This document shows positions 5,803 through 50,513 of a DNA stretch of 55,012 bases, piece after piece. The notes under the pieces are model-generated. The model saw only the letters and a list, made by a program, of their open reading frames with translations, ran no database searches and was not told where the DNA came from. The position numbers were made by a program, and so were the translations under genes. The DNA is taken from assembly GCA_017554565.1 (NCBI GenBank), contig JAFZID010000167.1, positions 1 to 55,012 of the forward strand. The letters are read 5' to 3'. Each line of letters begins with the position of its first letter. Position 1 is the first letter of the stretch. The stretch is from a bacterium (GTDB lineage Bacteria > Auribacterota > UBA3054).

Positions 5803-5804
5803 AT

Positions 5805-7649: not shown

Positions 7650-7666
7650 TACTTGGAGTAAATATT

Positions 7667-29833: not shown

Positions 29834-29860
29834 CAAAAAAAGAGCCCCGCCAAGCGGGGC
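29834..29860 (-). terminator. Rho-independent terminator after the 126-aa gene
   Basis: The stem GCCCCGC / GCGGGGC (29844-29860) has a CAA loop. A run of 7 T follows on the minus strand. Confidence 0.65.
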
Positions 29861-29887
29861 CCCCCACAAACCAAAAAAACCAACCAA

Positions 29888-30268
29888 TCATTTCGAACTC
29901 TTCACCGCCACGGTCTTCTTCGCCTTAGCGCCAATATTCCTAGTCTTCGTCACGGTCACAGTCTTCTCGTTCCCTTTCTCCGGACCGCTCCTCGCCAGCG
30001 TCAGCAGCAGCTTAAGCGGCCCCACATCCCGCGGAGTCCCAATCCCACACACCTTCCCCGCAGCATTCCGCACCAAAACCACCGGCAGCACTTCCTCAAA
30101 AATCACCGCATGAAAAGCATACAGCCCCCGATCGATAGCCATCGCCATCGCCTCAGGCCGCATGCTCCACCCCCTACCGCCGTACGTCCCTCCCAACAAA
30201 ACGATCGCATCCGGATCCTTCGCCTTCGGCCCAGCCAACTCCACCCACGACACTTCAATATCACGCAT
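29888..30268 (-). CDS. Small hypothetical protein (126 aa), possibly DUF3892-like, with a Lys-rich tail
   Basis: A perfect AGGAGG RBS lies 5 nt upstream of the ATG and GC is backbone-like. The pattern LLGG...GWSMRPEAMAMAIDRGLYAFH loosely resembles DUF3892, which is a weak call. Confidence 0.6.
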   Translation of the reverse strand: MRDIEVSWVELAGPKAKDPDAIVLLGGTYGGRGWSMRPEAMAMAIDRGLYAFHAVIFEEVLPVVLVRNAAGKVCGIGTPRDVGPLKLLLTLARSGPEKGNEKTVTVTKTRNIGAKAKKTVAVKSSK

Positions 30269-30380
30269 AGTTACCTCCTACAGGTTTGATTACAATCGCT
30301 ATTATTTTAACTAGCATATTAATTTTACTAAACTTTACCTCATAACAACCTATCCACCAGCCCAAACCGCCCCACCAAAC

Positions 30381-30410
30381 AAAAAAGCTCCGCCAAGCGA
30401 GGCTTTTTTC
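30381..30410. terminator. Imperfect bidirectional terminator-like hairpin downstream of the defence operon
   Basis: AAAAAA-GCTCCGC CAA GCGAGGC-TTTTTT. It is a near-copy of the 29834-29860 element. Confidence 0.5.
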
Positions 30411-30539
30411 TCCGCTACCAATTTTAGTAGCGAATGTAATCCTTTTCCCTACAAACTCACTATTTTCGCTAACTTCTATCTATTTTACTAGCTTTTACCA
30501 GATTAGTTAGTCCACTATTACTTTTCTAAATATCGTTAA

Positions 30540-31604
30540 TTATTTGTAAATCTGATCTCTGACAATTTCAACGAACCCTGTTATATCCAAGTAATAGTTT
30601 GGGTAGGCTTCGTTCAGTTGTTTAATAGAAGACACACGAACAAGTACCGCATCTGTTTTATCTTTCTCTCTGGTTTGTTCAATCTCATCATATTTTTTGT
30701 TTGCTTCCAAAAAATCGCTGGATTGATATAAGATAATATTCAACTTTTTTTCTTCGTAATTTAATTTCAAAATAGCATAAGCAGCATTTTTATCAAACTT
30801 TTTATCCTTATTAGCCTGAGTTGCAGACTTCACTCCAGAAAGAAATTCTAGATATTGATTTTTTATATCAAGTTCTTTAATTTCTTTTATAAGCTCTTCT
30901 TTACTAGATGGCGTATTGGGCACACATGGTTGTCCCTCTAAGATAGCAAAGAGAGATGAAACTAAAGCAAAAAAACGTCTAATATCACGTGACCCGCCAC
31001 CAGCTTTTATGGCCTCTCTTTTAAAAGTCCCCATGGTTTCTACGGCGGTTGCCCAAGCATGCTGAAGGCGAGAACGAAACTGAATTTCAATCAGCATGTT
31101 TCTGTTGTAGTCCTCACGTTTATCACTATGATATTTATATACTGCATGTAGACTTCTGTATCCATCTTCTTTTGGGTTCTTTATATAATCTTTAACTCTA
31201 ATTTTGATATGTCGTTTTCGAGATTTATCATATTTCTCGAAATATTCATAAACATTCTCTCCTGGCGGTACAACCATTCTACAACCACCTATGTCCTGCA
31301 TCTCCCATAAACTCATAAATGGCTCCCGCTCTAATTTGTTGATAATAGAGTCCTTTCTTTTTAATCTTTCGGCAACAATTATATTTGATTTGTTCTTAGT
31401 AAATCTTCGCAAGTGAATATAAATAACATGCATTGGAAAAGCGTGAGAGGCGCGCCAATTGTTCAGAACTTTTTCGGATTCTAAATCCAAACATCCTTTT
31501 TTTATATTCCGCCCAGCTTTTAAAATTTGGCCCTTTGAATACTCAAGTTTTTTCCATTTTGGTTGTTGGATTTTTTTCATATAATATTCCTCATCTTTAA
31601 GCAA
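30540..31604 (-). CDS. RelA/SpoT-domain protein (small alarmone synthetase / toxSAS-like) with a ~150-aa C-terminal extension
   Basis: Synthetase-fold motifs are MQDIGGCRMVV, DGYRSLHAVYKY and IEIQFRSRLQHAWATAVE. No HD hydrolase domain is present. Confidence 0.85.
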   Translation of the reverse strand: MLKDEEYYMKKIQQPKWKKLEYSKGQILKAGRNIKKGCLDLESEKVLNNWRASHAFPMHVIYIHLRRFTKNKSNIIVAERLKRKDSIINKLEREPFMSLWEMQDIGGCRMVVPPGENVYEYFEKYDKSRKRHIKIRVKDYIKNPKEDGYRSLHAVYKYHSDKREDYNRNMLIEIQFRSRLQHAWATAVETMGTFKREAIKAGGGSRDIRRFFALVSSLFAILEGQPCVPNTPSSKEELIKEIKELDIKNQYLEFLSGVKSATQANKDKKFDKNAAYAILKLNYEEKKLNIILYQSSDFLEANKKYDEIEQTREKDKTDAVLVRVSSIKQLNEAYPNYYLDITGFVEIVRDQIYK

Positions 31605-31640
31605 AAATTCAATTGTTTAAACGCTATTAAGCAAAATGTG

Positions 31641-32486
31641 TTATAAGCTTTTTTTAAGCTCGCTCATACGTTTTTTCCTTTCCACATGGTTAATTTTGAG
31701 AAAAACTAGTAATAATGTTTGATAGGTTTCATCATACCAATATTCGCGTTCTTCATCACTCATATTAGCCACAGCTTTTTTATAATTTTTGCTGTCTTTC
31801 CCAATATTATTATGGCGAATATTTAGGGTGTTTAGCAAAAATCCAATATCTGACCGGAGCGCCTTACTAATATGTTCAAGTTTTGTTTCGTAATTTTCTA
31901 GTTCAATGGCAAGTGATTCAAGCACTCTTCTTTTACCTTCAAGATTTCCTTTCATGGAGTTATGGTTATATTCCAATAAGAGAGACGACAAATCCTGGTT
32001 AAGTATTTCAGATACAGAAATAGCTGCTTGAGATTTGGGAACGATATGAGTTTCTCCTTCTTTTTCATTACACATATATCCCATTTTTTCTATTACAGTT
32101 AAAACTTGTTTTATATAAAGATCTAATGGTTCTTTCATTCTCTCTCTCCAACGATAAGGAATCTTTGAATCATTAGCATCTCTAGCACCGCATACCAAAT
32201 TATAAGAGTATTCACAAAAAGATAGCAAATAATCAACATCAGCATTGGCCGGAACAGATTCGCCAAAGCATTTTTTGTGGACACTATCGTAATCGGATAA
32301 TGTCAAACAAGTGTCGCGCAAGGTTATTTTCTTAAAGCTCTTAGAAATAAACTCTCTGATGGTGCAATAATCTGTAATATCTACATGGTGCGATTCTTTA
32401 TAAAATATATAGTAAAGTCTTTCATACTCTTTCTTCCAATTGAAAGATGTATCTTTCAAAACTTGAGAAAATGTTTTTCTTTCCAT
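31641..32486 (-). CDS. Hypothetical protein (281 aa) with no recognisable domain
   Basis: A long ORF in the operon's strand and composition. It lies 35 nt after the giant helicase gene and 36 nt before the RelA/SpoT gene. Confidence 0.7.
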   Translation of the reverse strand: MERKTFSQVLKDTSFNWKKEYERLYYIFYKESHHVDITDYCTIREFISKSFKKITLRDTCLTLSDYDSVHKKCFGESVPANADVDYLLSFCEYSYNLVCGARDANDSKIPYRWRERMKEPLDLYIKQVLTVIEKMGYMCNEKEGETHIVPKSQAAISVSEILNQDLSSLLLEYNHNSMKGNLEGKRRVLESLAIELENYETKLEHISKALRSDIGFLLNTLNIRHNNIGKDSKNYKKAVANMSDEEREYWYDETYQTLLLVFLKINHVERKKRMSELKKSL

Positions 32487-32521: not shown

Positions 32522-35500
32522 TCAAAATAAAGATTCGTATCTATATGTGTCTAATCCAGTATTACAGAGTGCAACGAAACCAGGCGAAAATTGCATGACA
32601 TTAAAGAAATGCCAGAATCCGTTCCATTCTTGTTCATATTTATTGGTCCTACTATCTAACCTATCATCGAGCATTGCACAAACAGATATGGGACAATACG
32701 GATCAAACTTGATTTTGTTAAAGGGAACCCCTGCATAAACATTAATATGTGCATCTGTGCCACGAGGGCTCCATGTACCAAATAACGTTTCCAAATAAAC
32801 AAATTCGTCTTCTACAAAATGTACCTGATCATTGATTATCTTTATTTGATTGATCCAAGAATCAAATCCTTCGTTGTTCTGGGTTGCGTTAGGTACTAAT
32901 AAAGATAACGAATAGGCTTTTGCTTGGGCTTGAAATAAATATTCGGCATTATCTAGTTCAAGATACTGCATAAGAAGTTCTAGTGTAGACATCCTATACG
33001 GCTTTAGTTTTTCTGCCTTTAAATAGCCAACAGTCGGATGATAGATATTTGATGGCATCTGTTCAGGAATAAGTGTTGGCGTAGCATAATTACTTTGTAT
33101 AGAGAAAGCCGATTTGACATCATGCCAGCTTAAAACCCAAACCCTATATTTCCCACTTCTCCTAATGGCTTCCCTTTTTAGCGTATCATCAGCGACATTG
33201 TCCTTATGATATTTATAGCCATCAGTGAAAATAGCAACCGGAAGTTTTTTGTCGTTATTTTTTGGTCTGATAATAAAATCTGGCTTACAGGTTACTTTCA
33301 CTCCTTGGGTGTGATCAAGCTTGACTTGAGGTTCTATTTCCCATTCGGCGTCATTAACCTTTAAGTTATAACCCTCTTTTCCATTGATAATGGATTTCTC
33401 TATTTCTACTTTACGACTGCTATTTCCCATCTTTGGAATGGCTGATATAAATAAGCGTTCCAATTCACTGTCAAACAGCGTATTAACAGGGACATCCGCT
33501 AATTTCTTAATCTTAGTCAGCTTATTCTTCCCGCTAAGAATCTTCTTTAGGATGCTAATTGCAGTGTTTCTGGATATGTTTCCAATATTCCGGCTCTGTC
33601 TATAGGCATATAAGCAGTGATAGCATCCATCTTTTTGAGGATCATCCTTGCATGAACAGTCCTCTAATTTTTGAAGGGCTCTTTCTAATATGTCTATCAA
33701 CGAGCCTTCTTGATTCATCAGCTGCTTCAGATACCCTGTTCCGCCAGGGACAGAATCATAGATAACAAGATATTGTTTACTGTAATCAGCATCAGTAACG
33801 GGAACTTCGCTAACAACGGCTCTTAGATGATCGACATTGCCAAAATATTCCTTCATACCTAGCATAAAAGCCGCCGTAAATGATTCTGTCCTGACCTTGG
33901 AAGAATCCAAAGTAGTTGCAGGTATCAGAATACGCAAAGCTTCAGTAGTAAATTCACGATACAAGAATAAGCAGTCTTCATATGGATTTTCTTCGCCAGA
34001 AGGTGATTTTCTTGTTTTGCAATAGAAGGTATGAGCATTATTATTTTGATCTGTTTGAATCTTCCCACAATGTTTACATATCCTAAATCCGTTTCTTACT
34101 TCCTCAACTCCGGAAACCATCAACTTCTCGCCAACCTGAGTTAACTCGCCGAAATTGATGTCACGAAGAGTTGCTTTCTTTACAAACTCATAGCCAAAGG
34201 AAAATTCATCGTTATCCATTTGATAAGCACAGGTAACGTCATTTCCTTCGTCAACGTCAACCAAAAGCTGCTTGCAATAGAAAGTGTTGGTCCTGCCGTC
34301 GCTGTCGTCTGATATCAAGCTATCAGCATACTTCATATTGGAATAGACCATCTGTACCTTTAACATATTCCTAACTTGACCGGCATCTGCCCAGCCAGGG
34401 CTTCCACATCTTGGACAAGTAGCGGTATTTTCGCCGGACACTTCTATTTCAGCATGGGAGCAATTCGGACACAATCTCCATTTTTCAAATTGAGCGCTAG
34501 TCAGATCAACCTGATCAACTTTTAACTTTCTCCCATCCACATAGAAGTTGTTATTGGGAGCAAATTCAGTAAGCGCTATAGAAGCTGATCGTCTATATTC
34601 ATAGGTCGATTTTGAATATTTAGAAGCGCCTTCATCTCCATCATCCTTGCGGTAAAGTACGGCCCTCAATATTATGCCCGATTCGGGGAATGCGTAATTC
34701 GGCAAAAGTCCTTCATCAGAAAGGAAATTAAATATGTCTTTTCTGTTGATTTCTTTTACCACGTTTATAAGAGCGTTTTTCTCGGATTTTAATTCCTTAA
34801 TTTCCTTCTCATATGATGAGTCTTTCGGCTTCTTCTCCAGATCCTTGATCATCATATTAAGCTCTTTAATACTCTTAGAAAGCGAGTCTCTCTGTTTTTT
34901 AAGAGCATTGAACGCTTCCAACACCTGGAGGTGCATCGGGCTTTTAAAATCAACGCCTTTAACAAACTCTTTAAGTTCCTTTTTTGCTATTTCGTCAATA
35001 TAATTGGAAAAAAGCTGAATAAAAGAACTTAAAAGTTGCGTGAGATTATCCTGAACATAGAGCAAAAAGTTAAACGGGAAAGCATCTGCGGGATGAGCAT
35101 CGAGTTTATTAAGCACTAGGCTGACATTCTTCGGAATAGAATCTTCTGTAGCGCCAGCTTTTACCCAGGTGTCCATACAATATGCTACAAATTGACGTTC
35201 AAGCACAGCAGAAGCCTTTAAAAAGATCTTCGGAGATACAACGTTTCCTTCTATCATTTCCAAAGGTTCGGAATAGAAGTACGAATCGTGAGGTTTAGCG
35301 GAAGCAATAGCCAGTGTCAAAGCATTTCCGTCTTTTCGTCCTGCGCGGCCAGTGCGCTGCAAGAATTGCGCTTGTGCAGGAGGAACACTACATAAAACGA
35401 TAGAGGAAAGGTCGCCGATATCAATACCCATTTCAAGCGTAGGCGTACAGCTTAGGACATTAGGATCCCACATTTTTGAAGAATCCTTTTTCCTCTTGAA

Positions 35501-38488
35501 ATCGTATTCAAGCGCTTCTCTGTTCTCCCGCTCCAAAAGACCAGTGTGTTCTCTGGCGTTGATTCTTACAATATCACCGGAAGAGAAAAGTTTTCCGTAG
35601 TAATCAAGTCCTACCGACACATCTTCTTTTAGTTTTCCAGAACATCCTTTTCTCAAACAATGAGCATCTTTCCAAAGAGCCTTGTTATTCTCGGAAACAG
35701 CATAAGTGATTCCACAGGTCTCGCATCTCTCAAAAGATACTTTATCGCTGATAATAACCTTAGATTTATCGATAGCAAAGATGCTGTACTCATCGTTTGC
35801 TTGAATATTAACTACCAATCCGCTCCTCACAAGCTCTTCAATGATAATATTGCAGACAGCACCTGCAGTATCTTCCATTATGATGTCGCTGCACGACAAT
35901 ATCCAAGATACATATTTCTTATCATTAATAGAATCAAACGTTGTTCTCTTCCTGCCTATACCATTCAATTGGTATATAAAGCGCGGAAGATTCCTGCCTG
36001 CCTGCAAGCCAGGAAGCCATTTTTCTTCGCTATTCGACAATAAATACGCTACACCATCATTTCTCAAATACTTTGAGAAACAATCATCATTAAAAGCGCC
36101 ATTTTGAGCCATTATCTTAAGATAACCAGCTACCATTTGAATAAAAGCATCTAATCCAACCTTATCCAAATTTCCAATTTCATTAACAGCTCTTTCATGA
36201 ACAACCTTGCCAACCTCTGAAATCACATCTGTTGGGAATTCCAAGCATGAACAGCCAGATTTTTCCAAAGTTCTACCAATTCTGCTAGCGAGTCCATATT
36301 CAAGCATAATCTCGTAGGATATACGCTTTTCAATATTCTTCATTAACGTTAAGGCTCTTTCATCATCACCAAACTTGCGCCTATTTATCATTTCTTCATA
36401 AGCGCTCATCCATACCATGTTAGGAGCAATAAAGAAACTCACGAAAGTCTCATTATCCCACTTGGCATGATAATATTTGATGAACCCTCTAGTAAAATCA
36501 ACAAAATTTAAACCTGCTCCACCATCTTGAACATATCTTTGAATAGCACTTCTAAGTCCAAATCTCCAAGTTCTAGCATTGAAAAAGCCCGCTCTATGCG
36601 CAGCATCTTGAACATTATCGGAAAAAGCCAATAACTTCTTATCATCGTTGAACTTCGAGGCAAAAATCTGTGATATTTCAGTACTGATCTCTGTTGCGCT
36701 CCTTAGACCCATTAGAGATAGGCCCCTCTTAGATCCGCAGAAGGGACAAACATATTGCTTAATATCTTGAGAGCCGCTTCTGGTTCGTTCTGGGGTTGCT
36801 ATGATAATATCTATCATCTCTGTACCGCAACTGTCACAGAGATTAGATTCTCTTTCAGCAGTTTGAACTTTAAGACAGTTAGGACATATACGACCATGAT
36901 CAGTCCTTCCGGGATGATCTTCATGATTATGAGGAAACATCATTACAACCTGTTCATCAGCATTGAAAAATAGATTATAAAAGGTTTCCAATTTCGTTAA
37001 AGTAGCGTTACGATGTTCATCCAATATAGATGTCCAGCCTGTTGCGCCACATTCCCTGCAGTTAACAACCGGTAAATAGTATTTAACCTGTTGTTCATTG
37101 AGATCATTAGCCAAGGCATAAGAAATCTCCTTACCAGATACCTTAGCCAACAATCTTCTAAGTTCCCTAATCCACAATTGTATTTGAACATTTAAGAAGG
37201 GACGCAACTTTTCAGGCTTTCCGGTACGCGCATGAGAAATCAAGGCAAGCAAAGCATTAACTGCTGCTTCAGCATCCTTAATTTCACCTAAAGCAGGATA
37301 TTCTGTTTTTAACGCTTCAATTATTGTGCTTACTTGGTAATATTTCCCTTTGATTAGACCTATCATTGATTGCATAAAGCTATGATGCATCAAATGATTC
37401 CCTAATTCTATCCTCCCTTCTGGCGTTAATATATCAACGCCATGCAAATTAGTCCAAGCAACAGCAGCTTCTTTTAGATATTCTTTTTCACTATCCTGAT
37501 CAACAAGGTTATTCAAACGAGCAATTTGATCAATCGTCGGAAAAGTCTTATCAGTTATTTCTTGCCCAGAAAAGAATTCTTCAGGACTTAATCTATCCTC
37601 AGTTACAACTGCATCTTCATCAAAAGGCTCTCCAAATACCTCTTCGGCATACTCCAATATATTCTCTTCATTCTCTTTTGATCCCATTGTAGCTGAAGTG
37701 CCAATACAGCAGATATGCTTTTCAGGAGTTGCCAATCTTGATTTAAGTCTTCTTAGCAAGCAGGCCAGATCTGTTCCTTGCGCTCCATCAAAGGTATGGA
37801 ATTCATCCACCGCCACAAACTTCAAAGTTTCTGGACCATTGTCTTTCCAAAGCTTAGCATCCTTCGGACGAACTAAAAGATAATCCAGCATCTTATAGTT
37901 CGTCATAAGGATATCCGGCGGATTAGACAACATTATTTCTCTGTCGGTAATCACCTTATCAGCTGTCATAACTTGATTAGGAACCAGTTCGAATCCACCC
38001 ACATACATTCCAGCCGTAACATTACCACGCAATTCAGGACTATTCCAAATCAATTCCGCAATACGTTTAGCCTGGTCTGAAGCCAAGGCATTCATAGGAT
38101 AAATAATCAGGGCTTTAATGCCTTTCTCTCCTCTGTGCCTATAGCAATACTCCAATATCGGATACAAGAAGCATTCTGTTTTACCAGAGCCAGTACCAGT
38201 AGCAATCAGAGTTGAACGACTGTCCTCTCCTGTCAATCTCTCAAAAGCAATCTGTTGATGCACATAAGGAAGATAAGCCGGATGTATCGCAGTAAAGCAC
38301 TTAGGCATCTCACTAGCAACGCGGAAAGGAAGGCGTACTGAGATATAAGGATCGTGATAAACAGCGTCCTTAGTTTCAAGCATCTTACGAATAGAACCAC
38401 GGAATGGTTCGTTCGTCATCGGAAAGGTCGTCTCTATATAATCAGAGATACCTTTCTCTAGTTGTTTTGCTAGTATTGATGGTAACAT
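32522..38488 (-). CDS. Giant (1988 aa) DEAD/DEAH-box helicase fused to a DUF1998-type zinc module and a C-terminal PD-(D/E)xK-like domain (DrmA+DrmB-like)
   Basis: Walker A is ATGTGSGKTE (aa about 97) and the DExH box is VDEFHTFDG (aa about 228). Motif VI QRTGRAGRKDG lies at aa about 1043. Cys clusters are CPNC...CPRC (about 1340), CKHC (about 1468) and GCYHCLYAYRQSRN (about 1619). PDFIIRP...VAIFTDGYKYHKD lies at about 1733-1765. Confidence 0.9.
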   Translation of the reverse strand: MLPSILAKQLEKGISDYIETTFPMTNEPFRGSIRKMLETKDAVYHDPYISVRLPFRVASEMPKCFTAIHPAYLPYVHQQIAFERLTGEDSRSTLIATGTGSGKTECFLYPILEYCYRHRGEKGIKALIIYPMNALASDQAKRIAELIWNSPELRGNVTAGMYVGGFELVPNQVMTADKVITDREIMLSNPPDILMTNYKMLDYLLVRPKDAKLWKDNGPETLKFVAVDEFHTFDGAQGTDLACLLRRLKSRLATPEKHICCIGTSATMGSKENEENILEYAEEVFGEPFDEDAVVTEDRLSPEEFFSGQEITDKTFPTIDQIARLNNLVDQDSEKEYLKEAAVAWTNLHGVDILTPEGRIELGNHLMHHSFMQSMIGLIKGKYYQVSTIIEALKTEYPALGEIKDAEAAVNALLALISHARTGKPEKLRPFLNVQIQLWIRELRRLLAKVSGKEISYALANDLNEQQVKYYLPVVNCRECGATGWTSILDEHRNATLTKLETFYNLFFNADEQVVMMFPHNHEDHPGRTDHGRICPNCLKVQTAERESNLCDSCGTEMIDIIIATPERTRSGSQDIKQYVCPFCGSKRGLSLMGLRSATEISTEISQIFASKFNDDKKLLAFSDNVQDAAHRAGFFNARTWRFGLRSAIQRYVQDGGAGLNFVDFTRGFIKYYHAKWDNETFVSFFIAPNMVWMSAYEEMINRRKFGDDERALTLMKNIEKRISYEIMLEYGLASRIGRTLEKSGCSCLEFPTDVISEVGKVVHERAVNEIGNLDKVGLDAFIQMVAGYLKIMAQNGAFNDDCFSKYLRNDGVAYLLSNSEEKWLPGLQAGRNLPRFIYQLNGIGRKRTTFDSINDKKYVSWILSCSDIIMEDTAGAVCNIIIEELVRSGLVVNIQANDEYSIFAIDKSKVIISDKVSFERCETCGITYAVSENNKALWKDAHCLRKGCSGKLKEDVSVGLDYYGKLFSSGDIVRINAREHTGLLERENREALEYDFKRKKDSSKMWDPNVLSCTPTLEMGIDIGDLSSIVLCSVPPAQAQFLQRTGRAGRKDGNALTLAIASAKPHDSYFYSEPLEMIEGNVVSPKIFLKASAVLERQFVAYCMDTWVKAGATEDSIPKNVSLVLNKLDAHPADAFPFNFLLYVQDNLTQLLSSFIQLFSNYIDEIAKKELKEFVKGVDFKSPMHLQVLEAFNALKKQRDSLSKSIKELNMMIKDLEKKPKDSSYEKEIKELKSEKNALINVVKEINRKDIFNFLSDEGLLPNYAFPESGIILRAVLYRKDDGDEGASKYSKSTYEYRRSASIALTEFAPNNNFYVDGRKLKVDQVDLTSAQFEKWRLCPNCSHAEIEVSGENTATCPRCGSPGWADAGQVRNMLKVQMVYSNMKYADSLISDDSDGRTNTFYCKQLLVDVDEGNDVTCAYQMDNDEFSFGYEFVKKATLRDINFGELTQVGEKLMVSGVEEVRNGFRICKHCGKIQTDQNNNAHTFYCKTRKSPSGEENPYEDCLFLYREFTTEALRILIPATTLDSSKVRTESFTAAFMLGMKEYFGNVDHLRAVVSEVPVTDADYSKQYLVIYDSVPGGTGYLKQLMNQEGSLIDILERALQKLEDCSCKDDPQKDGCYHCLYAYRQSRNIGNISRNTAISILKKILSGKNKLTKIKKLADVPVNTLFDSELERLFISAIPKMGNSSRKVEIEKSIINGKEGYNLKVNDAEWEIEPQVKLDHTQGVKVTCKPDFIIRPKNNDKKLPVAIFTDGYKYHKDNVADDTLKREAIRRSGKYRVWVLSWHDVKSAFSIQSNYATPTLIPEQMPSNIYHPTVGYLKAEKLKPYRMSTLELLMQYLELDNAEYLFQAQAKAYSLSLLVPNATQNNEGFDSWINQIKIINDQVHFVEDEFVYLETLFGTWSPRGTDAHINVYAGVPFNKIKFDPYCPISVCAMLDDRLDSRTNKYEQEWNGFWHFFNVMQFSPGFVALCNTGLDTYRYESLF

Positions 38489-38509: not shown

Positions 38510-39637
38510 TTATTTTCTAAAATACTGTTCACTAACTTTTCTAAAAAGTGAATTCTTAACCAGATATAAATTTCCCTTTGTTCTAGTTAATGCAACATAA
38601 AGTTTATTTACAGTTGATATCGGAATACCATCAACCGAAAAATCATCTTTATCAAGACTTTCAAAATTATCTGTAAGTATGACACAAACTTCATTAAAGG
38701 TATCACCTTTCGAATATGACCAATTCATAGAATTAAACGAAAACCTTTCGGAATCTCTAAATACAAGTTTTAGCAAAGAACGATTATCTAAATAACTAAT
38801 TAATTTTTCTTCATCCTCTATCCATAAAACATTACCATTATTTTTCCCATCAGATTCAATATTAATTCCTAATTTCTCTTTTACAAAAGAACAAACATTA
38901 TCTGAACATCTTCTCGACTTATTTAAAGATGTATCATCAATTTTGAAATGTAGTTTTTTAAGCTCTTTAACAAAATCAGCATAAGTAACATCCGTCTTGC
39001 CGGCTTTAAAAGGTTTCCCAGAATTATTAATTGCGGATACTGAATGTTGATAATAATCACCGACAAGAAGAATATTATTTAAAATATAAGAAATAGAAAT
39101 TATAAGTTCAAAATCAAATTCTCTGAAATCTTGAAATTCATCTATAAGAACTTTATCAAAAAATAAATTTAATCTGTTTGTAGCTCGTTTTAATATTTTG
39201 TTCTTCTTAGCATCCATAAACATAATCATTTCTGATAACCTAGAACAGTAATAATAACCAAACTGGTCAACATAATGTCCAAAACAATCCTTATTAATGT
39301 AATATGGATTATGAAAACATCTTCCACCTTTCTTAATTATATTAGGAGGAGGACTTGAGGTAGTTATACCTTTAATCAAAAAAGTATCACATTTAAAAAA
39401 AGTTTTAATTGTGGGTTCATACGGGCATACAAAAAACCTATAAACAAATGCATCAAATGTCAATATTGTAGTTTTTGTTGGAATACAACCATAGGCAATC
39501 AATAGTTCTTTTCGAATATTATGAATATTTTCGTGCGTAAAGGCTAGGATAAGATTTCTCTCACCCAAATTAATAGAATGACAAATAAAATAGGTTTTTC
39601 CTGCGCCTGCAACAGCTAAATTTATTTGCTTATCCAT
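38510..39637 (-). CDS. Short UvrD/PcrA/Rep-like SF1 helicase (GajB-like)
   Basis: Motif I is AVAGAGKTY and motif II is VLIDEFQDF. It also has GDYYQ, SRRCS and motif VI YVALTRTKGNLYLV. The start overlaps the upstream OLD gene by 16 nt. Confidence 0.8.
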   Translation of the reverse strand: MDKQINLAVAGAGKTYFICHSINLGERNLILAFTHENIHNIRKELLIAYGCIPTKTTILTFDAFVYRFFVCPYEPTIKTFFKCDTFLIKGITTSSPPPNIIKKGGRCFHNPYYINKDCFGHYVDQFGYYYCSRLSEMIMFMDAKKNKILKRATNRLNLFFDKVLIDEFQDFREFDFELIISISYILNNILLVGDYYQHSVSAINNSGKPFKAGKTDVTYADFVKELKKLHFKIDDTSLNKSRRCSDNVCSFVKEKLGINIESDGKNNGNVLWIEDEEKLISYLDNRSLLKLVFRDSERFSFNSMNWSYSKGDTFNEVCVILTDNFESLDKDDFSVDGIPISTVNKLYVALTRTKGNLYLVKNSLFRKVSEQYFRK

Positions 39638-41211
39638 TCTATAGCATCCTCAACATATTTTGGTATTAAAAATTTTTCCTCAGACAATAGCATTTTATAT
39701 GCTGAATCAACTTTATTATTAAGCATTTTTCCAAGAACTGGGTCTTGATCATAATCTTTATCATGATATTTGTAATTAGCTCCAGACTTAACTTCAATTA
39801 TATTTTCAAGTAAATTTTTATTGTTATTATAAATGCATACTTCCCAAGTAAATTCATTTAAATCCTCTGGAATAAATATTCTTTGTAATTTCCTTCCTTC
39901 ATCCTTGTTAAATGAATCAGCATCATCTAATTTGCTCTTTTTACCATCATTATCTGTTATCACAGCTATCTTTTTATTTAGGCAGTTCACAGTTCTTAGA
40001 TAGTTCTTATAAGAAATTCCGTTGCAAGAGATAACGGAAATTTCATCAGCATCAATCGTTCTGCCTGTTTGAAGTTTATAAAAATAAGGAATTAACATAT
40101 ATTCTGTAGCTCCCTCGACCAAAATTACTTTTTTAGATAATAAGAATTGTAAAAATGAATTGTCATCAGCTTTAACAAAGAAATCAGCCACATCATTATC
40201 AACAGATTCTAGCGATACAGACTCAAAATCGTTTATCCAAATAACATGTTTAAGATTAAGTCGGCTTGTAATTAAATTGCTATGCGTCGTAACAATAATT
40301 TGAGAATCATCTTTTTTATTGGAAATTTCATGTAACATTTTTATCAATGTTGTATAGCTTAAATGATTTTCTGGTTCCTCAATCAAAATTACATCAAGGT
40401 TGTTTTTCTTATTTAAAGCTATTTGAGTTTTGATCAAGCTCTCCATACCACTACCACGATTTTCAAGTGATATAGATTCTTCGTAAACAGATAAAATGGT
40501 ATCTAAAACAACTTTTTTGCTATCGACTCCAAATTTTCTTCTTTCATCAATATCCGGAAGCTCTATTTCTTTAAATGCTTCTTCTAGTTTATCTCGGAAA
40601 ATATTTTTGGCTCTTTGACGTTCTTTATCATCATATTTACTATTAAATAAAGATTTATTAAAGTAGCTAAAAGAAGGATAGCCGAAATTAGTTGTATCAA
40701 TTGATATGAAATTTAGTGGACGTTTAATTAATTGATATGGCCTATTAGCAAAAGTCGTCCAAGACATTTCATAATACTCGTATGGAATTTTTCCCTGAGA
40801 TATAAATTCATTTAAGCCTTCTCCGATATCATCATTAAATTTACATTCAAATCGTATGCCATATTTTTCTTCTTGTGAAATTTGTTTACCATAAACTTCT
40901 CCAAAAAAATATTCAGCGTTTTTATTATCCTTTTCAAGATTAAATTCAATTTCAATTAAAATTTTTGGAAGAGTCTTAACACTAGGATTATCTTTAAATT
41001 CATTAACACAAGTCACGTTAAATAAATCACACAATATTGACTTATCAGAACTCCTATATTGTTGATTTAAGACAACCTTTATTGCTTCTAAAATAGTACT
41101 TTTCCCCGACTCGTTTTCTCCAACAAGAATATTCATACTTTCATTGAAATTAATCTGAAAATCTTTGAATTTCTTGAATCCATTTATTGTCAAACTTTTA
41201 ATATGATTCAT
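39622..41211 (-). CDS. OLD-family ATP-dependent nuclease: ABC-type ATPase plus Toprim (GajA-like, class 2 OLD)
   Basis: Walker A is VGENESGKST and Walker B is VILIEEPENHL, followed by VTTHS. Toprim elements are VILVEGATEY (Glu) and VITDNDG (DxD). Confidence 0.85.
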   Translation of the reverse strand: MNHIKSLTINGFKKFKDFQINFNESMNILVGENESGKSTILEAIKVVLNQQYRSSDKSILCDLFNVTCVNEFKDNPSVKTLPKILIEIEFNLEKDNKNAEYFFGEVYGKQISQEEKYGIRFECKFNDDIGEGLNEFISQGKIPYEYYEMSWTTFANRPYQLIKRPLNFISIDTTNFGYPSFSYFNKSLFNSKYDDKERQRAKNIFRDKLEEAFKEIELPDIDERRKFGVDSKKVVLDTILSVYEESISLENRGSGMESLIKTQIALNKKNNLDVILIEEPENHLSYTTLIKMLHEISNKKDDSQIIVTTHSNLITSRLNLKHVIWINDFESVSLESVDNDVADFFVKADDNSFLQFLLSKKVILVEGATEYMLIPYFYKLQTGRTIDADEISVISCNGISYKNYLRTVNCLNKKIAVITDNDGKKSKLDDADSFNKDEGRKLQRIFIPEDLNEFTWEVCIYNNNKNLLENIIEVKSGANYKYHDKDYDQDPVLGKMLNNKVDSAYKMLLSEEKFLIPKYVEDAIEWISK

Positions 41212-41222
41212 AATAGTGTCTC

Positions 41223-44200
41223 CTATATTTTTCCATATTTATCTTCAAAGAATTTCCATGCCGTTTCATAATCCTTTTCTCGATCGCATCTATCAAAAGG
41301 TGCAATGTATTCAATCGTACGTTCAACTGGACCTCCAGGCATAGTATCATCCGTTACAGTACGATAAAATTTTTCACCTGCTGGAGCCCCTTTTTTCCCA
41401 TTTTCCCATTCTTGACGAGAATAACCAACACCTGTTAAACTGCGATTGTTAGTGAAAACTATGCGGCCATTTGCATCGTACCAGGTATCTGATTCATACT
41501 CTTTAAGTATATAAAATTGGCTTTGATAAATAGAAATAAGTTGTTTAAGAGATATACCCAAAGCCATTGCAACAAGAACATCAATTTCTATTAACGCTTG
41601 TCTGCGTTCAAAATCAGTACGAAGAGGACAATTCTTATCCCACTTTGATGATAAAGAAAGGAAATGATCATTGCTAAGTCTGCTATCTATTTTAGCCCAT
41701 TTTCTTTCCCTAAAGGTATTGTGCCAACATTCTTCCCATAATTTTGAATAATGACTTGTTAAGCAATTTAAGACAAGAGCAATACAAGATGCTTCAAGAA
41801 TTTTATCATTATTTATAAAAGGAAGAGGCCTTAATAAACCAATCCCACCAGAATTCTTACCTGTACATTTAATATAAAAATCATAGGGCAATGATGATAA
41901 TAACGATTCAACAAAAGGTAGTTTATTTATGTGTTTAAATCCTATTTCTAAGACGGCATGTACATGTCCGATTTTTGGTGAAAGTATTGCAGGAACTAGT
42001 GTTCTTTCTCCGCCTTGTCCAAGCATATTTCGCATAAAAATACGATAATTTAAATAAGATTTTTCTCCCCAAGGAGTAATTGGAGCTCTGTTATCATATT
42101 CGGTAATATCACATTTAGGGCTATAATTACAACGCTGTAAATAATCATCTGGAATTATAGTTAAATCAATATTGTCATAATCGCTATTCAATCTACACAC
42201 TCTTCTGGAAGCTTTAAACAATGGATTAGAAACCAGAATATGCGGACCAGAGATAATTAGATCTATCGCTGAGTTTGGAAAATGAACATTCCTTTTTATG
42301 GTTCCGTCATTTTGCCTATTAGTTTCGTGCCACATCTCAGAAACAGATATCTCATCAAACATCTTCCCTAAATTAACTTCTTGATTTGCAAAACACTGCA
42401 AAACATCAACATATAGCATTTCGTGTATAACGGGTAGTCGAGCAGTTTCCCATTTCGAACTATTGTCAAATATATTTGCAAAAATAGTTAGTTCTTTTTT
42501 TGATACATGTACTATTCTATTTGGATGTCCTTTAGTACACCATCCATTTTCATCTTTTATTCCAGGTACTGGCAATATAGGATCTCCATCATAACATTCC
42601 TCTATAGTGCTAGGAATATAAAGATTGCTAATAGAGTCAAATTGAGGTAAGTCAAGTGGACCACCATACACATTCAAACTGAATGTAGTATGGTGGTGCA
42701 CTTCGGGAAAAAGTTTACGCTCGTTCGCAAACATAAAATGCTTGCGAAGACGCGGATATAATTTTTCTCGAAGTGCACCACCCTGAGGATCGTCATATAC
42801 ACCCTCAGGGTGAATGAACGCACTAACACCTTGGCTAGTATTAAATTGCCATGCCTGAGGCAAAAAACATTTAAACAAGTTAGTTTGTTGTCCCTTAAGA
42901 TCAATATAATTATGCTCAGAATTCAAAAAAGCTTGTTCTCCAGATAATGATTCGTATTCTGAAAAATACATCTTTTTTGAAGTTTCCGATTCTAAGGCAT
43001 CATTACGAAAATTAGTTGTTTCACTTGCAGTTAATCTTTTAACAGCAAACATTGGTTGAATATCGGAAAGCATTCCCTGCTCGTTCCATTCAATTTTAAT
43101 CCAGGGCGGATTTCCAATAATTAAATCAAATCCTCCATGTTCAGCAAAAAGATCAGCAAACTCAAGCTCCCAATGCATAAAATGATTTTGTTCTGCTATC
43201 TTTTTAACTAGCGCTAATCTTGGGTAAAGGGTGCAGAGTTCTTCGAGATCTACTTGTTTAATATTCTCTTCTTCTGACTCGGCTTCTGGTTGATCTTCGC
43301 TAAACAAATCACCTTGCGTTCCTTTTTGTGTTTTAGGTCTTGAAATTTCTTCCCCAAACAAATCTCCTTGTTTTCCCTGCTTGGATTGAGTGCCCATAAC
43401 ACCACGCAGAATCATATCCATATCTTGGATAAATTCTTGTCTGGTGGGTAGAAGATTGGCTTCAGTGATTGGCCAGAACCAGAGGGCGCACCAGTAGTCC
43501 ATAGCAAATTTGAGTCTTGCGTATGCTCCTGCGTTCTTAGCTCTCTCTGACTTATAGATGTTGGAAAGGTATTTGTCTTTCTCTCGGATAGTCAGATGAT
43601 TATCTTTACGAGAGTCATGTTGACCGTAAATATCAAGAGAGGTTATCGTTTCTCTTTCGAGCAATTGCCTGTCTGAGACTTGCTGTTTCCAGAGAACATC
43701 TACTACTTTTGATAGCTCAATTAGTGAATTGAATTCTTGTTCGGAGTACTTCTTTATAAAATCTTTGTTCCAGTTTTTCATTAGCCTGATATTCTCAGGC
43801 TCCAAATCTTTTATGACCCTGTCTGTATATTTGCACATACCTGGATCACCGGTAAGGAAATGATAGACCTGGAATCTGGAACGAGCGATGTTTCTTCCGC
43901 TGGCATCTAATTTAGTAAAGGGAATACGTTCAGGAGCATTTTCGTACCAGCGTTTTCCGTTTTCTGATGTGGTTAGCTGATTCTTATGATAGACCTGGCG
44001 TCTAGCTCCTATAAGGGAGTTGCCGTTTACTAGCTGTGTTCCGAACCAAGGAACATAGCCGCCTTCGTAAATAGTGTTGAGCCAGAGTGAGACTTCAGCT
44101 AGCTCTACAGCAACAGGGTTAAGGTCAATGCCATAAACGTTGTTGTCGGCAATATACATTTTGACCTTCTGGAGTTCCTGTAAGCGTTTATCGGCAGGGA

Positions 44201-46037
44201 TCAGCTCTCCTTTTTCTTCTTGTTTTTTGTTCAGATAGGCTTCCGCAAGCTGATTGATAGCCTCGTTCAAGAAGGCTGCACTTCCCATAGCTGGTTCGCA
44301 AACCTTAAGATTAAGGATCTCGTCTGCAGTTTTATCCTGTAGTAATTCCTTCAGAGCATATTTGACTAGACACTTTGTTAGAACTTCAGGCGTATAGTAG
44401 GAAGCTGATTTTTCTCTTTCTCTACCCGCCAATCGATAGATAAACGTGCCTTTCTCATATTTTCTGAGATCTCCTTGCCTATATCTTCCATCTGGATCAT
44501 CTCTATCATAGCGGACTCGCTCGGCTTCGGTATATTGTTCGAGTTCTTCTTCAGCTACAAAATAGCCTACGTCTAGCTCATTGAAAGTGTCGCCGGCTTT
44601 TTTGACCTCAAAGAGAGTGTGTTCAGCTATAAATCCCCTATATGAAAGCAAAGCTTCATATACGGCGCCTAACTGGTTGATACCGAGGTTTGCGTAGGAA
44701 ATACGTCCGCGTCTGGAGTTCCTTCTTCCTGTTTCTCTGGTCAAGCTCATGAGATCAATGATTCTGAGCATAACCTTGTTGCGTATCTTAGACTCTGAAA
44801 TCATTTTCGTATATTCAGGATCAAAGATATGCGCCTTTAGGGGAGAGATTAAGAACATGTCATGAAGACTCTCTTCTTTGGAATACTTGATGAGATCTTC
44901 TTCCTTTTTAGGATAACCATTGTAAATAAGGTCATAGAGCTTAGAGAGGGACTCGTGAAGATAAAAACCTTCTCCAACTTCAGTAACGTCGTCTCGTACG
45001 CTGTCAGCAATGTCTCTAAGACTTTCCAGGGAATATCCTGTCAGATAAGATTGAGCCTTAATAGGGGCGTAGCCCAGTTCCGGACGCGATTCAATGAACA
45101 ACATGAAAAGCATACGATACATATAGCGCAGACATTCAATAGTAAGCTGTCCGGCATCGACAGGATCAGTTTCAAAGTTCCTGCCGAGACGATGCTTCAT
45201 GTCGTAAAGGACTTCATTACCTAAAAGCTCAATGCACTCTCTAAGGGCGTATTTAAGATCCTGGGAAACGCCGGCTGCGTGCCTTTGAGAATTGGCGTCT
45301 AATTGATCTATAAGACTTGTCCCGTCTTCTGGGCAGAGACTGTCTTTATGAAGAAGGACCGCCATTGCCTGAAGAGTGGATTCTTCATGACGGCTGAATA
45401 TATCCTCTAGTTCGAATTGGAGAAAACGCTTTTCGTTCCACTTATTTCTATCGATCAGCGCGATCTGATTCATCCCTATAAGGATTACAAATCTCGGAGG
45501 CTCGGCTTGGCCAAAAAAGATTTTCGTTACAAGATCTTCATTTGTGATTGTGGTTAAGCAATTTGACGGAACACTATTTTGGCCTTCTTCACCTATGTCA
45601 TTAATAGAAAAACAATATTTATCAAGGATAGAGGATTCTTTGTCTTCAGAAGCAGCTAATAAAACCCAAAGAGCCGGAGCACCGTTAGCTTTTTTTATTT
45701 CAAGATAAACTGGTGCTTTCGTATCATCATCGATCTGTATCCATTCAGGTGAGGCAGAAGGATAATTTAAAGAAGAAAGATAAAGATCGGCTAAACTACG
45801 GATGTTTGAAACTGTTTGGGTGTCAAATCTTGATCTTAAATAACGATCGTGAATCGTGTAATACTGTCTTGCGCAGTCTCTAAGACGAGACCAGGGCGTT
45901 TTTACTCCTTCCCCTTCCTTAGCTTCAGCTCTCCACTTAGAAATAGTTTCAGAAGCATTCTCCTCAAAAATAGAGGAGAAGTAATGATTCGTATAATATT
46001 CGTTCTGGTTAGTAATACCAGTTAAATCCATGCTCAT
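41223..46037 (-). CDS. Very large (1604 aa) Eco57I-type N6-adenine DNA methyltransferase (DrmMI-like)
   Basis: SAM motif I is VCEPAMGSAAFLNEAI (aa about 578), followed by YGIDLNPVAVELAEVSLWL. Catalytic motif IV is IIGNPPWIKIEW (aa about 973). I see no nuclease motif. Confidence 0.9.
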   Translation of the reverse strand: MSMDLTGITNQNEYYTNHYFSSIFEENASETISKWRAEAKEGEGVKTPWSRLRDCARQYYTIHDRYLRSRFDTQTVSNIRSLADLYLSSLNYPSASPEWIQIDDDTKAPVYLEIKKANGAPALWVLLAASEDKESSILDKYCFSINDIGEEGQNSVPSNCLTTITNEDLVTKIFFGQAEPPRFVILIGMNQIALIDRNKWNEKRFLQFELEDIFSRHEESTLQAMAVLLHKDSLCPEDGTSLIDQLDANSQRHAAGVSQDLKYALRECIELLGNEVLYDMKHRLGRNFETDPVDAGQLTIECLRYMYRMLFMLFIESRPELGYAPIKAQSYLTGYSLESLRDIADSVRDDVTEVGEGFYLHESLSKLYDLIYNGYPKKEEDLIKYSKEESLHDMFLISPLKAHIFDPEYTKMISESKIRNKVMLRIIDLMSLTRETGRRNSRRGRISYANLGINQLGAVYEALLSYRGFIAEHTLFEVKKAGDTFNELDVGYFVAEEELEQYTEAERVRYDRDDPDGRYRQGDLRKYEKGTFIYRLAGREREKSASYYTPEVLTKCLVKYALKELLQDKTADEILNLKVCEPAMGSAAFLNEAINQLAEAYLNKKQEEKGELIPADKRLQELQKVKMYIADNNVYGIDLNPVAVELAEVSLWLNTIYEGGYVPWFGTQLVNGNSLIGARRQVYHKNQLTTSENGKRWYENAPERIPFTKLDASGRNIARSRFQVYHFLTGDPGMCKYTDRVIKDLEPENIRLMKNWNKDFIKKYSEQEFNSLIELSKVVDVLWKQQVSDRQLLERETITSLDIYGQHDSRKDNHLTIREKDKYLSNIYKSERAKNAGAYARLKFAMDYWCALWFWPITEANLLPTRQEFIQDMDMILRGVMGTQSKQGKQGDLFGEEISRPKTQKGTQGDLFSEDQPEAESEEENIKQVDLEELCTLYPRLALVKKIAEQNHFMHWELEFADLFAEHGGFDLIIGNPPWIKIEWNEQGMLSDIQPMFAVKRLTASETTNFRNDALESETSKKMYFSEYESLSGEQAFLNSEHNYIDLKGQQTNLFKCFLPQAWQFNTSQGVSAFIHPEGVYDDPQGGALREKLYPRLRKHFMFANERKLFPEVHHHTTFSLNVYGGPLDLPQFDSISNLYIPSTIEECYDGDPILPVPGIKDENGWCTKGHPNRIVHVSKKELTIFANIFDNSSKWETARLPVIHEMLYVDVLQCFANQEVNLGKMFDEISVSEMWHETNRQNDGTIKRNVHFPNSAIDLIISGPHILVSNPLFKASRRVCRLNSDYDNIDLTIIPDDYLQRCNYSPKCDITEYDNRAPITPWGEKSYLNYRIFMRNMLGQGGERTLVPAILSPKIGHVHAVLEIGFKHINKLPFVESLLSSLPYDFYIKCTGKNSGGIGLLRPLPFINNDKILEASCIALVLNCLTSHYSKLWEECWHNTFRERKWAKIDSRLSNDHFLSLSSKWDKNCPLRTDFERRQALIEIDVLVAMALGISLKQLISIYQSQFYILKEYESDTWYDANGRIVFTNNRSLTGVGYSRQEWENGKKGAPAGEKFYRTVTDDTMPGGPVERTIEYIAPFDRCDREKDYETAWKFFEDKYGKI

Positions 46038-49217: not shown

Positions 49218-50513
49218 TTAAAGTCCCAACATCTCTTTAGCTTCTGCGTGACCTTGTTCAGCAGCTTTCTTAAGCCAAAATGTTGCTTGTTCTGGATCGG
49301 GATCTATGCCTTTGCCGTAATAATAAGCAAGGCCCAGGGCGAATTGTGCACTGGCATAGCCTTGCTCGGCGGATTTTGTAAACCATTCTACGGCTGTTTT
49401 ATCGTCGCCAATCGAATCATAGTATACTCCCAAGCCGTACTGGGCCATGCTGTTTCCATCTTCTGCGGCGGCGGTAAAAAGTTCTTTAGCTTTCTCGAGA
49501 TCTTGCGGTACTCCTTTTCCGACCATATAGCAAGCGCCTAAATTATACCTTCCAAAAGAGTCGCCAAGATATGCTGCTTTCTTAAACCATTCAACAGCTT
49601 TTTCATCGTTGTTCAATTTAGTATAAAGTTTTCCTAAAGCGTTTTGGGCGCCAGAAAGTCCCTGTTCCGCCGCTTTTGTGTACCATTCCTTGGCTTTATC
49701 GTAATCTTGCGGTACACCGTTTCCATTTTCATAACAATCCCCGAGGGCATACGCTGCGTTCAAATTGCCCTGGCTTGCAGATTTGGAAAACAACTCCACG
49801 GCCTTTTTGAAATCTTGCGGCACACCTTTGCCGAAATAATAAAAATTACCTAATGAGACCTGTGCGTTTGATTCGCCTTGTTCTGATGCTTTTGTGTAGT
49901 ATTCTATAGCTTTTTCGTAATTTTGCGGGGATCCTTCACCAAATTCGTATTGTAGTCCTAAAATATATTGTGCTTCATCATCTCCTTGATTTGCAGCATT
50001 GATAAAATATTCTGTGGATTTAGCGAACAGCTCGTCTGCTTTTTTAGAATCTTGCGATACACCAATTCCTATTGCATAACAGTAGCCTAAATTGTGCTGT
50101 GATTTAGCATCTCCTTTTTCAGCTCCTTTTTTGTAGTATTCAACAGCTTTTTCGTAATCTTTTGGCACACCAACTCCAAAAATATAAAAATCGCCGATAC
50201 TTTCATAGGCAGGAGCGTATCCTTGCTCAGCCGCCTTTGAATATAATTCAAAAGCCTTCTTGAGATCTTGAGAAACACCTCTTCCGCGCGCATAACGTTT
50301 AGCCAAATTATATATGGCCGGAGCGTATCCTTGTTTGGCAGCCTTTTCAAAATATTTAAAAGCTAAATTGTCATCAGCTGCTTTAACCCCGAGCTGATTG
50401 TATCGTTCCGGAGTGTTATTGATGAAGCGCAAAAATAAAAACGTACACACGATCATTACCGAGATAATGATAAGTACGGCTATTATGTTTTTGGATGATG
50501 CGTTGGGTTTCAT
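49218..50513 (-). CDS. Membrane-anchored Sel1-like (SLR/TPR-family) repeat protein
   Basis: An N-terminal TM helix is followed by about 10 tandem ~36-aa units of the form A..WY.KAAEQG...AQ..LG.CY..G.GV.QD..KA. Confidence 0.9.
   Translation of the reverse strand: MKPNASSKNIIAVLIIISVMIVCTFLFLRFINNTPERYNQLGVKAADDNLAFKYFEKAAKQGYAPAIYNLAKRYARGRGVSQDLKKAFELYSKAAEQGYAPAYESIGDFYIFGVGVPKDYEKAVEYYKKGAEKGDAKSQHNLGYCYAIGIGVSQDSKKADELFAKSTEYFINAANQGDDEAQYILGLQYEFGEGSPQNYEKAIEYYTKASEQGESNAQVSLGNFYYFGKGVPQDFKKAVELFSKSASQGNLNAAYALGDCYENGNGVPQDYDKAKEWYTKAAEQGLSGAQNALGKLYTKLNNDEKAVEWFKKAAYLGDSFGRYNLGACYMVGKGVPQDLEKAKELFTAAAEDGNSMAQYGLGVYYDSIGDDKTAVEWFTKSAEQGYASAQFALGLAYYYGKGIDPDPEQATFWLKKAAEQGHAEAKEMLGL

Follow-up and report, generated by a model that had tools for sequence, protein, structure and literature searches.

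The stretch of DNA analysed here, called the window, comprises positions 1 to 55,012 (55,012 nucleotides) of contig JAFZID010000167.1 from a bacterium of the Auribacterota (UBA3054; assembly GCA_017554565.1). Two open reading frames (ORFs) on its minus strand close a defence operon: one of 281 codons with an ATG start (31641-32486), whose product we call U281, and one of 354 codons with a TTG start (30540-31604), which encodes a RelA/SpoT homologue (RSH). A preliminary description, made from the letters of the window alone, had placed both ORFs and the motifs of the RSH protein as we find them, and had seen the two genes as the last of a restriction-like operon. From 48853 to 30540, six co-directional genes follow each other with overlaps or gaps of at most 60 nt throughout, hairpins lie behind the RSH stop codon and the G+C content (GC) rises downstream, all of which bears out the terminal position. 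As developed below, the RSH protein is of a known kind, the fused CapRel type that PADLOC lists as PDC-S33, and the RSH-U281 pair is no real unit.

The RSH translation holds DIGGCRMVV, GYRSLH and EIQFRSRLQHAW, and its sole Pfam domain is RelA_SpoT (PF04607) at residues 79-191 (E 8e-19; residue numbers follow the 354-aa reading from TTG 31604 throughout). No HD hydrolase domain was found with Pfam, in agreement with the synthetase fold without hydrolase that had been described. The frame is open back to TTG 31604, but the true start is most likely ATG 31580, giving a gene of 346 codons (30540-31580, minus strand), because a GAGGA ribosome-binding site (31588-31592, minus strand) lies 7 nt upstream and public gene calls on identical contigs begin at the same ATG with a 346-aa product. 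The 354-codon ORF of the preliminary description thus stands as an ORF, and its start probably does not.

Searches with the whole protein pointed to CapRel. The best matches among Protein Data Bank (PDB) sequences were the CapRel(SJ46) chains 7ztb and 9erv (E 2.1e-39, query residues 13-343 on residues 6-361 of the 373-residue chain), with an identity of about 31-33%, and tblastn against Salmonella phage SJ46 gave 32.6% identity across 96% of the query. PADLOC model PDC-S33 matched from end to end (E 3.3e-112, residues 17-351 on positions 3-341 of 349) and PHROGs returned phrog_4773. We also predicted the structure with AlphaFold (predicted local distance difference test score, pLDDT, 81), and the top Foldseek matches of the model were again 7ztb and 9erv (E 1e-20, best 1.3e-20; 352-357 aligned columns; template-modelling (TM) score 0.65). 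The root-mean-square deviation of the full-length alignment with CapRel is high, 9.8 Å, which we attribute to a closed versus an open pose of the domains. By sequence and predicted fold, the RSH protein is homologous over its full length to CapRel(SJ46), in which toxin and antitoxin are fused, and is thus a CapRel-type toxSAS, as the preliminary description had suggested among other classes. PDC-S33, likewise, can be read as a CapRel-type clade, a link that we draw here from sequence and fold.

The housekeeping small alarmone synthetases (SAS) of the RelP/RelQ type (YjbM/YwaC) were the obvious other identity, and the preliminary description had named clustering with them as an outcome that would speak against a toxSAS. 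These enzymes matched the RSH protein with an E-value of only 1e-9 against 2e-39 for CapRel and covered the synthetase core alone; in Foldseek they aligned over the N-terminal ~190 residues only, and the RSH protein carries ~130 C-terminal residues more than they do. The protein is not a housekeeping SAS, since the NCBIfam model GTPPhKinYjbM scored 50.8 bits versus a cut-off of 320.

We then mapped the residues of CapRel(SJ46) onto the RSH protein with a HMMER alignment and read conservation over 24-25 homologues that are 37-61% identical. The toxSYNTH (pyrophosphokinase) domain takes up residues ~14-222 (30939-31565, minus strand) and the C-terminal antitoxin/sensor region residues 223-354 (30543-30938, minus strand). 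In CapRel(SJ46), R79 and R116 coordinate ATP, Y155 lies in the G-loop and the tyrosines Y352 and Y355 of a YXXY motif neutralise the toxin (PMC9712102). Their counterparts in the RSH protein are R80, R109 and Y149, which are invariant, and the equally invariant YPNY at 334-337 (30594-30605, minus strand; codons read from the sequence), which aligns with the AYPNYF of 7ztb. Among the interface residues of CapRel(SJ46), A77, V338, L339, A341 and A351 (PMC9712102), three correspond to invariant residues here (A78, V320 and A333 for A77, V338 and A351), and L339 corresponds to L321, which is at least 90% conserved.

The C-terminal region, to which the preliminary description had assigned no function, is therefore better described: its ~130-150 residues align with the antitoxin/sensor domain of CapRel(SJ46). 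It consists of linker helices, a three-stranded sheet with a helix that is the equivalent of the pseudo-zinc-finger domain (pseudo-ZFD), and an anchor helix. In the AlphaFold model the strands span 274-282, 287-294 and 317-323 and the helices 295-310 and 341-352, a topology that matches CapRel(SJ46)'s pseudo-ZFD (PMC9712102). Column conservation, taken as the mean fraction of the commonest residue, was highest in the core (0.81 for residues 71-200) and lowest in the C-terminal block (0.66), and the sensors of CapRel proteins are likewise the least conserved part of the protein. Like CapRel(SJ46) (Zhang et al. 2022, PMC9712102; 2024, PMC11578894), the RSH protein is thus encoded by a single ORF (346 versus 373 aa) and has a toxSYNTH domain in which the arginines of the ATP site and the tyrosine of the G-loop are retained, a pseudo-ZFD-like C-terminal domain, the YXXY plug and the anchor helix. 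Its isoelectric point (pI) of 9.5 makes it basic like CapRel(SJ46), which would be consistent with tRNA binding. The two differ in setting, CapRel(SJ46) being encoded in an enterobacterial prophage and the RSH protein on a chromosome, that of a metagenome-assembled genome (MAG), where its gene closes a DISARM-like operon.

The RSH family is very large, numbering 2,649 proteins at E<=1e-10; the 120 top-scoring ones are all 343-395 aa long. PDC-S33 entered PADLOC as a candidate from a guilt-by-embedding screen for genes that lie inside BREX, DISARM and type I restriction-modification (R-M) loci (Payne et al. 2024, bioRxiv 10.1101/2024.01.29.577857); it is a single-gene computational candidate with an unstated mechanism, and a literature search found no paper naming it. 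We examined 80 metagenomic loci of the family, 33 of which extended 1.5 kb or more on each side of the gene. The commonest neighbours were hsdM/S (12/80 loci) and hsdR (7/80); no neighbour cluster was common to more than 12 of the 80 loci, and those shared were hsdM/S and hsdR. Type I genes occurred in 10 of the 33 well-flanked loci (~30%). The embedded setting of PDC-S33 thus fits the window as well as these ten related loci, and the placement proposed for the window, in which a gene of abortive-infection type closes a restriction-like operon, agrees with the guilt-by-embedding pattern (bioRxiv 10.1101/2024.01.29.577857).

If the mechanism of CapRel(SJ46) holds for its homologue, the C-terminal domain would fold back in the uninfected cell so that YPNY enters between R80 and R109 and blocks the ATP site. 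During infection a phage protein, such as the major capsid protein or Gp54 that act as triggers in the model CapRel(SJ46), would bind the variable pseudo-ZFD-like domain and keep the enzyme open; the opened toxSYNTH domain would move pyrophosphate from ATP to the 3' CCA ends of tRNA, and this modification would stop translation and abort the infection. Auto-inhibition, phage trigger and tRNA pyrophosphorylation are all transferred here by homology, from the correspondence in sequence and fold set out above. By the same homology, a separate antitoxin would be unnecessary for the RSH protein.

U281 (281 aa; 31641-32486, minus strand) belongs to a large, unnamed and mostly helical family. A single search returned at least 135 homologues, many of them full-length and 35-50% identical, and a profile search gave 1,338 clusters at 50% identity, nearly all of 260-300 aa. 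Sixteen residues are invariant: E20, Y21, E92, Y93, E160, Y173, N174, H175, K185, E197, R224, H225, E248, Y251, D252 and Y255. Family members are slightly acidic, with a median pI of 5.5. The preliminary description had recognised no motif in U281, and neither did we: U281 itself had no match in Pfam, NCBIfam, PADLOC or PHROGs and no significant match among PDB sequences by phmmer or profile, and 35 members of the family had none in PADLOC and none in a Pfam scan at E<=1 beyond a sub-threshold Abi_C hit in one of them. A structure prediction, which had been proposed as a way forward, gave a confident model (pLDDT 90.5) made up mainly of helices, the C-terminal one 37 residues long, and a single hairpin (137-150); Foldseek found no neighbour of it in the PDB or BFVD (best E 0.1-0.5, TM <0.25). 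By tblastn, no U281 relative was found among PLSDB plasmids or INPHARED phages. The fold and function of U281 thus have no recognisable counterpart, and the family is not in PADLOC 2.0.

Two faint similarities were followed up. The sub-threshold Abi_C hit (E 0.03-0.19, one member) would suggest a HEPN/Abi_C RNase, an assignment that we rejected: the Rx4-6H motif is absent, R224 and H225 being adjacent with no histidine at +5 to +7. The other concerns MazG. The U281 profile matched PDB 2q73, of the MazG family, weakly (E 0.19) over 52 residues that cover E248, Y251, D252 and Y255; hhalign of U281 against a profile of 2q73 relatives gave a probability of only 27%, Pfam MazG (PF03819) did not match the C-terminal fragments of U281, and an equivalent of the EExxE motif was not conserved. 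A MazG-like all-alpha NTP pyrophosphohydrolase domain in U281 was therefore retained only as a faint lead. MazG-type enzymes can hydrolyse alarmones.

The preliminary description had considered U281 as an antitoxin, sensor or partner of the RSH protein, and had taken a lack of conservation of the 281-aa ORF beside RSH genes as a point that would undo the pairing. In such a two-gene system U281 would act in trans as antitoxin, sensor or activator, in the manner of bicistronic toxSAS or PANGU-like systems. The genes are indeed co-directional, with a gap of 36-60 nt, sensor-toxSAS pairs are known (bioRxiv 10.64898/2026.04.06.716658), and the weak MazG-like similarity noted above lies at the C-terminus of U281. 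Conservation of the pair is what fails. An HMM search of six-frame translations found no U281 relative within 6 kb of the RSH gene in any of the 80 RSH-family loci, 33 of which are well flanked, and a CapRel-type gene was adjacent to U281 in only one of 78 other U281 loci, the remaining 77 having none; the closest relatives of U281 on long contigs had no RSH gene either. The claim of a pair is thereby lost.

The single exception, locus L019 (7287-15158 in a Clostridia MAG from goat rumen), makes the adjacency recur in a second genome, with the order hsdM-x-hsdS-CapRel-U281-PIN-hsdR. Its CapRel and U281 genes stand in the reverse order of those in the window, and its RSH protein is 39% identical to ours, compared with 53-61% for many other homologues. 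The pairs were not co-inherited, because the order is reversed and the RSH protein belongs to a different subclade, and the L019 adjacency is an independent juxtaposition. As an observation in its own right, this locus carries three embedded genes between hsdS and hsdR, for a CapRel-type protein of 339 aa, a U281 relative of 282 aa and a PIN-domain protein of 350 aa.

Domain content also separates the window from the known two-gene systems. Like FaRel and PhRel with their antitoxins, or the PANGU type I combination of a nucleoid-associated protein (NAP) with GRel, the locus has a RelA/SpoT-fold effector beside a second small gene; unlike them, its neighbour is not conserved with the RSH gene, and the RSH protein already holds an antitoxin in cis with an intact YXXY. 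It carries a pseudo-ZFD and not the acidic DMK domain of GRel/Pag1B. U281, mildly acidic and with no detectable DNA-binding domain, is unlike a NAP, and as far as Pfam shows it is neither a small alarmone hydrolase nor an antitoxin of the Panacea type. A PANGU-type NAP+GRel identity was therefore discarded, as the domain content differs and the pairing is not conserved, and we regard any two-gene system of RSH and U281 as highly improbable.

We next looked at what surrounds U281 elsewhere. Eighty genomic loci and several metagenomic ones were fetched, their genes were called, the neighbours were clustered and representatives were checked by Pfam. The set comprised 78 non-redundant loci besides the window, 68 of them with flanks of at least 1.5 kb. 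The dominant order was hsdM-hsdS-[U281]-(small gene)-hsdR, and the junctions ranged from -4 to +17 nt. The gene immediately upstream encoded HsdS or HsdM in 25 of the 78 loci, and HsdR came next after U281 in 14 loci (+1) and one gene further on in 6 (+2). Type I genes lay within 6 kb of U281 in 32 of the 68 well-flanked loci (~47%). Members embedded in type I loci occur, for instance, in Ruminococcus bromii ATCC 27255 (L055) and Sharpea azabuensis DSM 18934 (L050). U281 in the window follows the DISARM-like helicase and not hsdS, and other operons with helicase and methylase genes also contain it (L044, L053, L085 and L091). Further neighbours were SNF2+DUF4391, another EcoEI-type HsdR, UvrD+Lcl_C, a KAP nucleoside triphosphatase (NTPase), AbiJ_NTD4, ToxN, HigB, STAND NTPases, SIR2/FtsK/NACHT and Shedu-domain proteins, a 5-methylcytosine (5mC) methylase/Vsr and Gabija. 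The typical habitat of U281 is thus the slot right after hsdS in type I R-M operons, in addition to other helicase/methylase or defence loci. The RSH and U281 families favour the same operon slot, and since they are paired in 0/80 and 1/78 loci while hsd genes neighbour both, we consider the two as separate cargo of restriction operons that favours that slot.

The slot itself suggests another role, in which U281 would serve ATP-dependent restriction complexes (those of type I R-M and, in the window, the DISARM-like helicase) as an accessory subunit or as a guardian akin to PrrC. It would stay latent on the complex and act, or recruit an effector, once a phage anti-restriction protein disables the complex, CapRel being independent of it. 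PrrC, an anticodon nuclease, resides in the EcoprrI R-M locus and senses the inhibition of restriction (PMC12707154, PMC1484252), and it holds the same slot as U281. PrrC of the type Ic system EcoprrI is indeed the closest analogue of U281, by its position next to hsdS/hsdR, its tight coupling and a plausible back-up role should restriction be inhibited. The hsdS or hsdM genes directly upstream of U281 overlap or abut it, hsdR follows at +1 or +2 in 20 loci, the type I share is nearly one half and the family recurs in other helicase and methylase operons, all of which is consistent with such a guardian, as are singleton fusions of U281 to HSDR_N and to half an HsdS.

The analogy does not extend to the protein or to the degree of embedding. 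U281 has no detected sequence or fold similarity to PrrC, no P-loop motif is evident in the alignment, and the ABC-type NTPase and the anticodon-nuclease domain of PrrC are both missing by Pfam, NCBIfam and PADLOC in the 35 members scanned. Whereas PrrC is almost exclusively embedded in R-M loci (bioRxiv 10.1101/2024.01.29.577857), only about half of the U281 family is; the other half has no type I gene within 6 kb, and its neighbours are unrelated defence genes. The rate of embedding cannot separate an autonomous U281 from a guardian, because the CapRel-type family, itself autonomous, is also ~30% embedded, so that the rate is no proof of dependence. The fusions come from short contigs of single samples and may be deletion artefacts. 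We therefore consider a guardian or accessory subunit rather unlikely, though it is the leading alternative to an autonomous U281. Its fullest version is similarly doubtful: U281 would found a new family of more than 1,000 clusters with an unseen fold, mainly in gut and rumen anaerobes, which docks on restriction complexes as a guardian or second-line effector and forms a counterpart of PrrC that is neither an NTPase nor a HEPN protein.

The family might also lack an effector role altogether and comprise regulators, assembly or restriction-alleviation factors, or selfish passengers inserting after hsdS. U281 has no detectable effector domain and no structural neighbour, and its long C-terminal helix may mediate oligomerisation or binding. 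We judge this improbable. The family is large, and its 16 invariant residues, all polar or aromatic, suggest a site for catalysis or for a ligand; no helix-turn-helix (HTH) or recombinase feature was detected in U281, defence contexts account for nearly all occurrences of the family, and the plasmid and phage collections searched yielded no relative.

Altogether, we consider it probable that the RSH protein and U281 act independently, each as a defence module of one gene, with both genes at the 3' end of a DISARM-like operon. For U281 taken by itself, an autonomous role is slightly favoured: as a working model, it would be a defence cargo gene that functions autonomously and is expressed together with the restriction system, and whose product would act on nucleic acid or a nucleotide at a conserved polar site in which Glu, Tyr and His abound. 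Placing this site in the helical C-terminal half would be a guess, as the invariant residues span 20-255. Several observations pull the other way. RSH and U281 genes are adjacent in two independent genomes, that of the window and that of L019, and many metagenome contigs are short, so that missing neighbours are partly uninformative. The autonomy of U281 is read only from the roughly one half of its loci without type I genes within 6 kb, no recognisable effector domain was detected in it, and its fusions to type I subunits give a weak hint at physical coupling. In the RSH protein, the interface residue A341 of CapRel(SJ46) is replaced by an Arg (R323) that is nearly invariant in the subfamily, so that the details of auto-inhibition may differ from those of CapRel(SJ46).

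Some variants of the U281 neighbourhood were recorded alongside. The two fusions are P0320 (L180, 447-1598) and P0321 (L181, 290-1411), which join HSDR_N or Methylase_S (half an HsdS) to the C-terminal half of U281, each on a single-sample contig of less than 5 kb. An unannotated family of ~171-186 aa adjoins U281 relatives inside type I operons at six independent loci (L012, 9444-9998; L024/L027/L029, 10836-11357; L040, 10859-11383; L175, 1298-1858 and 2751-3266) and is absent from the window; in L175 it flanks the U281 relative on both sides. It had no match in Pfam or PADLOC and may be a facultative partner of U281. A divergent subfamily (U272 genes, at ~9.6-10.5 kb in L074, L079-L082 and L089) resembles the C-terminal half of U281 only. 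Its genes follow one for a ~449-aa KAP-family P-loop NTPase, directly or with one gene between, and the two may form a two-gene variant.

The restriction-like operon that the preliminary description had seen upstream of the two genes could be annotated gene by gene, all on the minus strand. It begins with a DrmD-like SNF2 helicase (46037-48853; PADLOC DrmD, E 2e-97) and a type IIG/DrmMI-like methyltransferase (41223-46037; PADLOC REase_MTase_IIG 3e-253, DrmMI 9e-57), followed by GajA (39622-41211, 529 aa; PADLOC E 1e-87), GajB (38510-39637, 375 aa; PADLOC E 5e-39) and a 1988-aa helicase with DEAD, Helicase_C and MZB (DUF1998) domains in Pfam (32522-38488; PADLOC DruE1 5e-115, DrmA 4e-18). This block resembles a DISARM/Druantia-like helicase-methylase operon with an embedded Gabija. 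The full Gabija pair (38510-41211) has the methyltransferase on one side and the large helicase on the other, one defence system inside another. The large helicase matches DruE1 best and DrmA only weakly, yet its neighbours are DrmD-like and DrmMI-like and DrmC is missing, a setting that looks like a DISARM/Druantia hybrid architecture. Its final ~350 residues had no Pfam match.

The GC of the operon block is 0.28-0.43 against 0.52-0.62 in the host background, and just downstream of the RSH gene it climbs from about 0.34-0.41 to 0.52-0.55. Two stable hairpins follow the RSH stop codon (30380-30434, minus strand); the second is terminator-like, with a run of A, a stem rich in G+C and a run of T. 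Their predicted RNA fold has -29.3 kcal/mol (z = -4.52), and none of 200 shuffles was equally stable. A simple terminator scan did not flag them; they are likely to be the end of the operon.

Several features flank the operon. Terminator-like elements at 29839-29865 and 30380-30413 (minus strand) have a common core, GCTTGGCGG(G/A)GCT, followed by a T-run; the latter is 3' of the RSH gene and the former 3' of a 126-aa ORF (29888-30268) of host-like GC with no annotation. Beside the promoter-proximal end of the operon, where the GC returns to the host level, lies a 431-aa ORF (49218-50513, minus strand) with Sel1/TPR-like repeats, as judged by eye only. A second low-GC block (0.33-0.48) occupies 3691-14081 on the plus strand, with five packed large ORFs of 703, 614, 602, 800 and 736 aa, none of which had a convincing Pfam match or a match in PADLOC.

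These results carry a caution for the annotation of such loci, since two genes that adjoin where a defence operon ends need not be a toxin and its partner. For the RSH protein, they extend the characterised biology of CapRel to a very abundant and divergent clade that PADLOC lists only as PDC-S33; read as CapRel-type, PDC-S33 gains a mechanism open to testing, and its variable sensor domain can be mined for new phage triggers. The U281 family is the more novel part of the locus, being large, unnamed, without structural neighbour and strongly linked to restriction operons. It occupies the slot of PrrC in nearly half of its loci, which makes it a well-defined target for guilt-by-embedding discovery, and it may inform us on how restriction systems get backed up.

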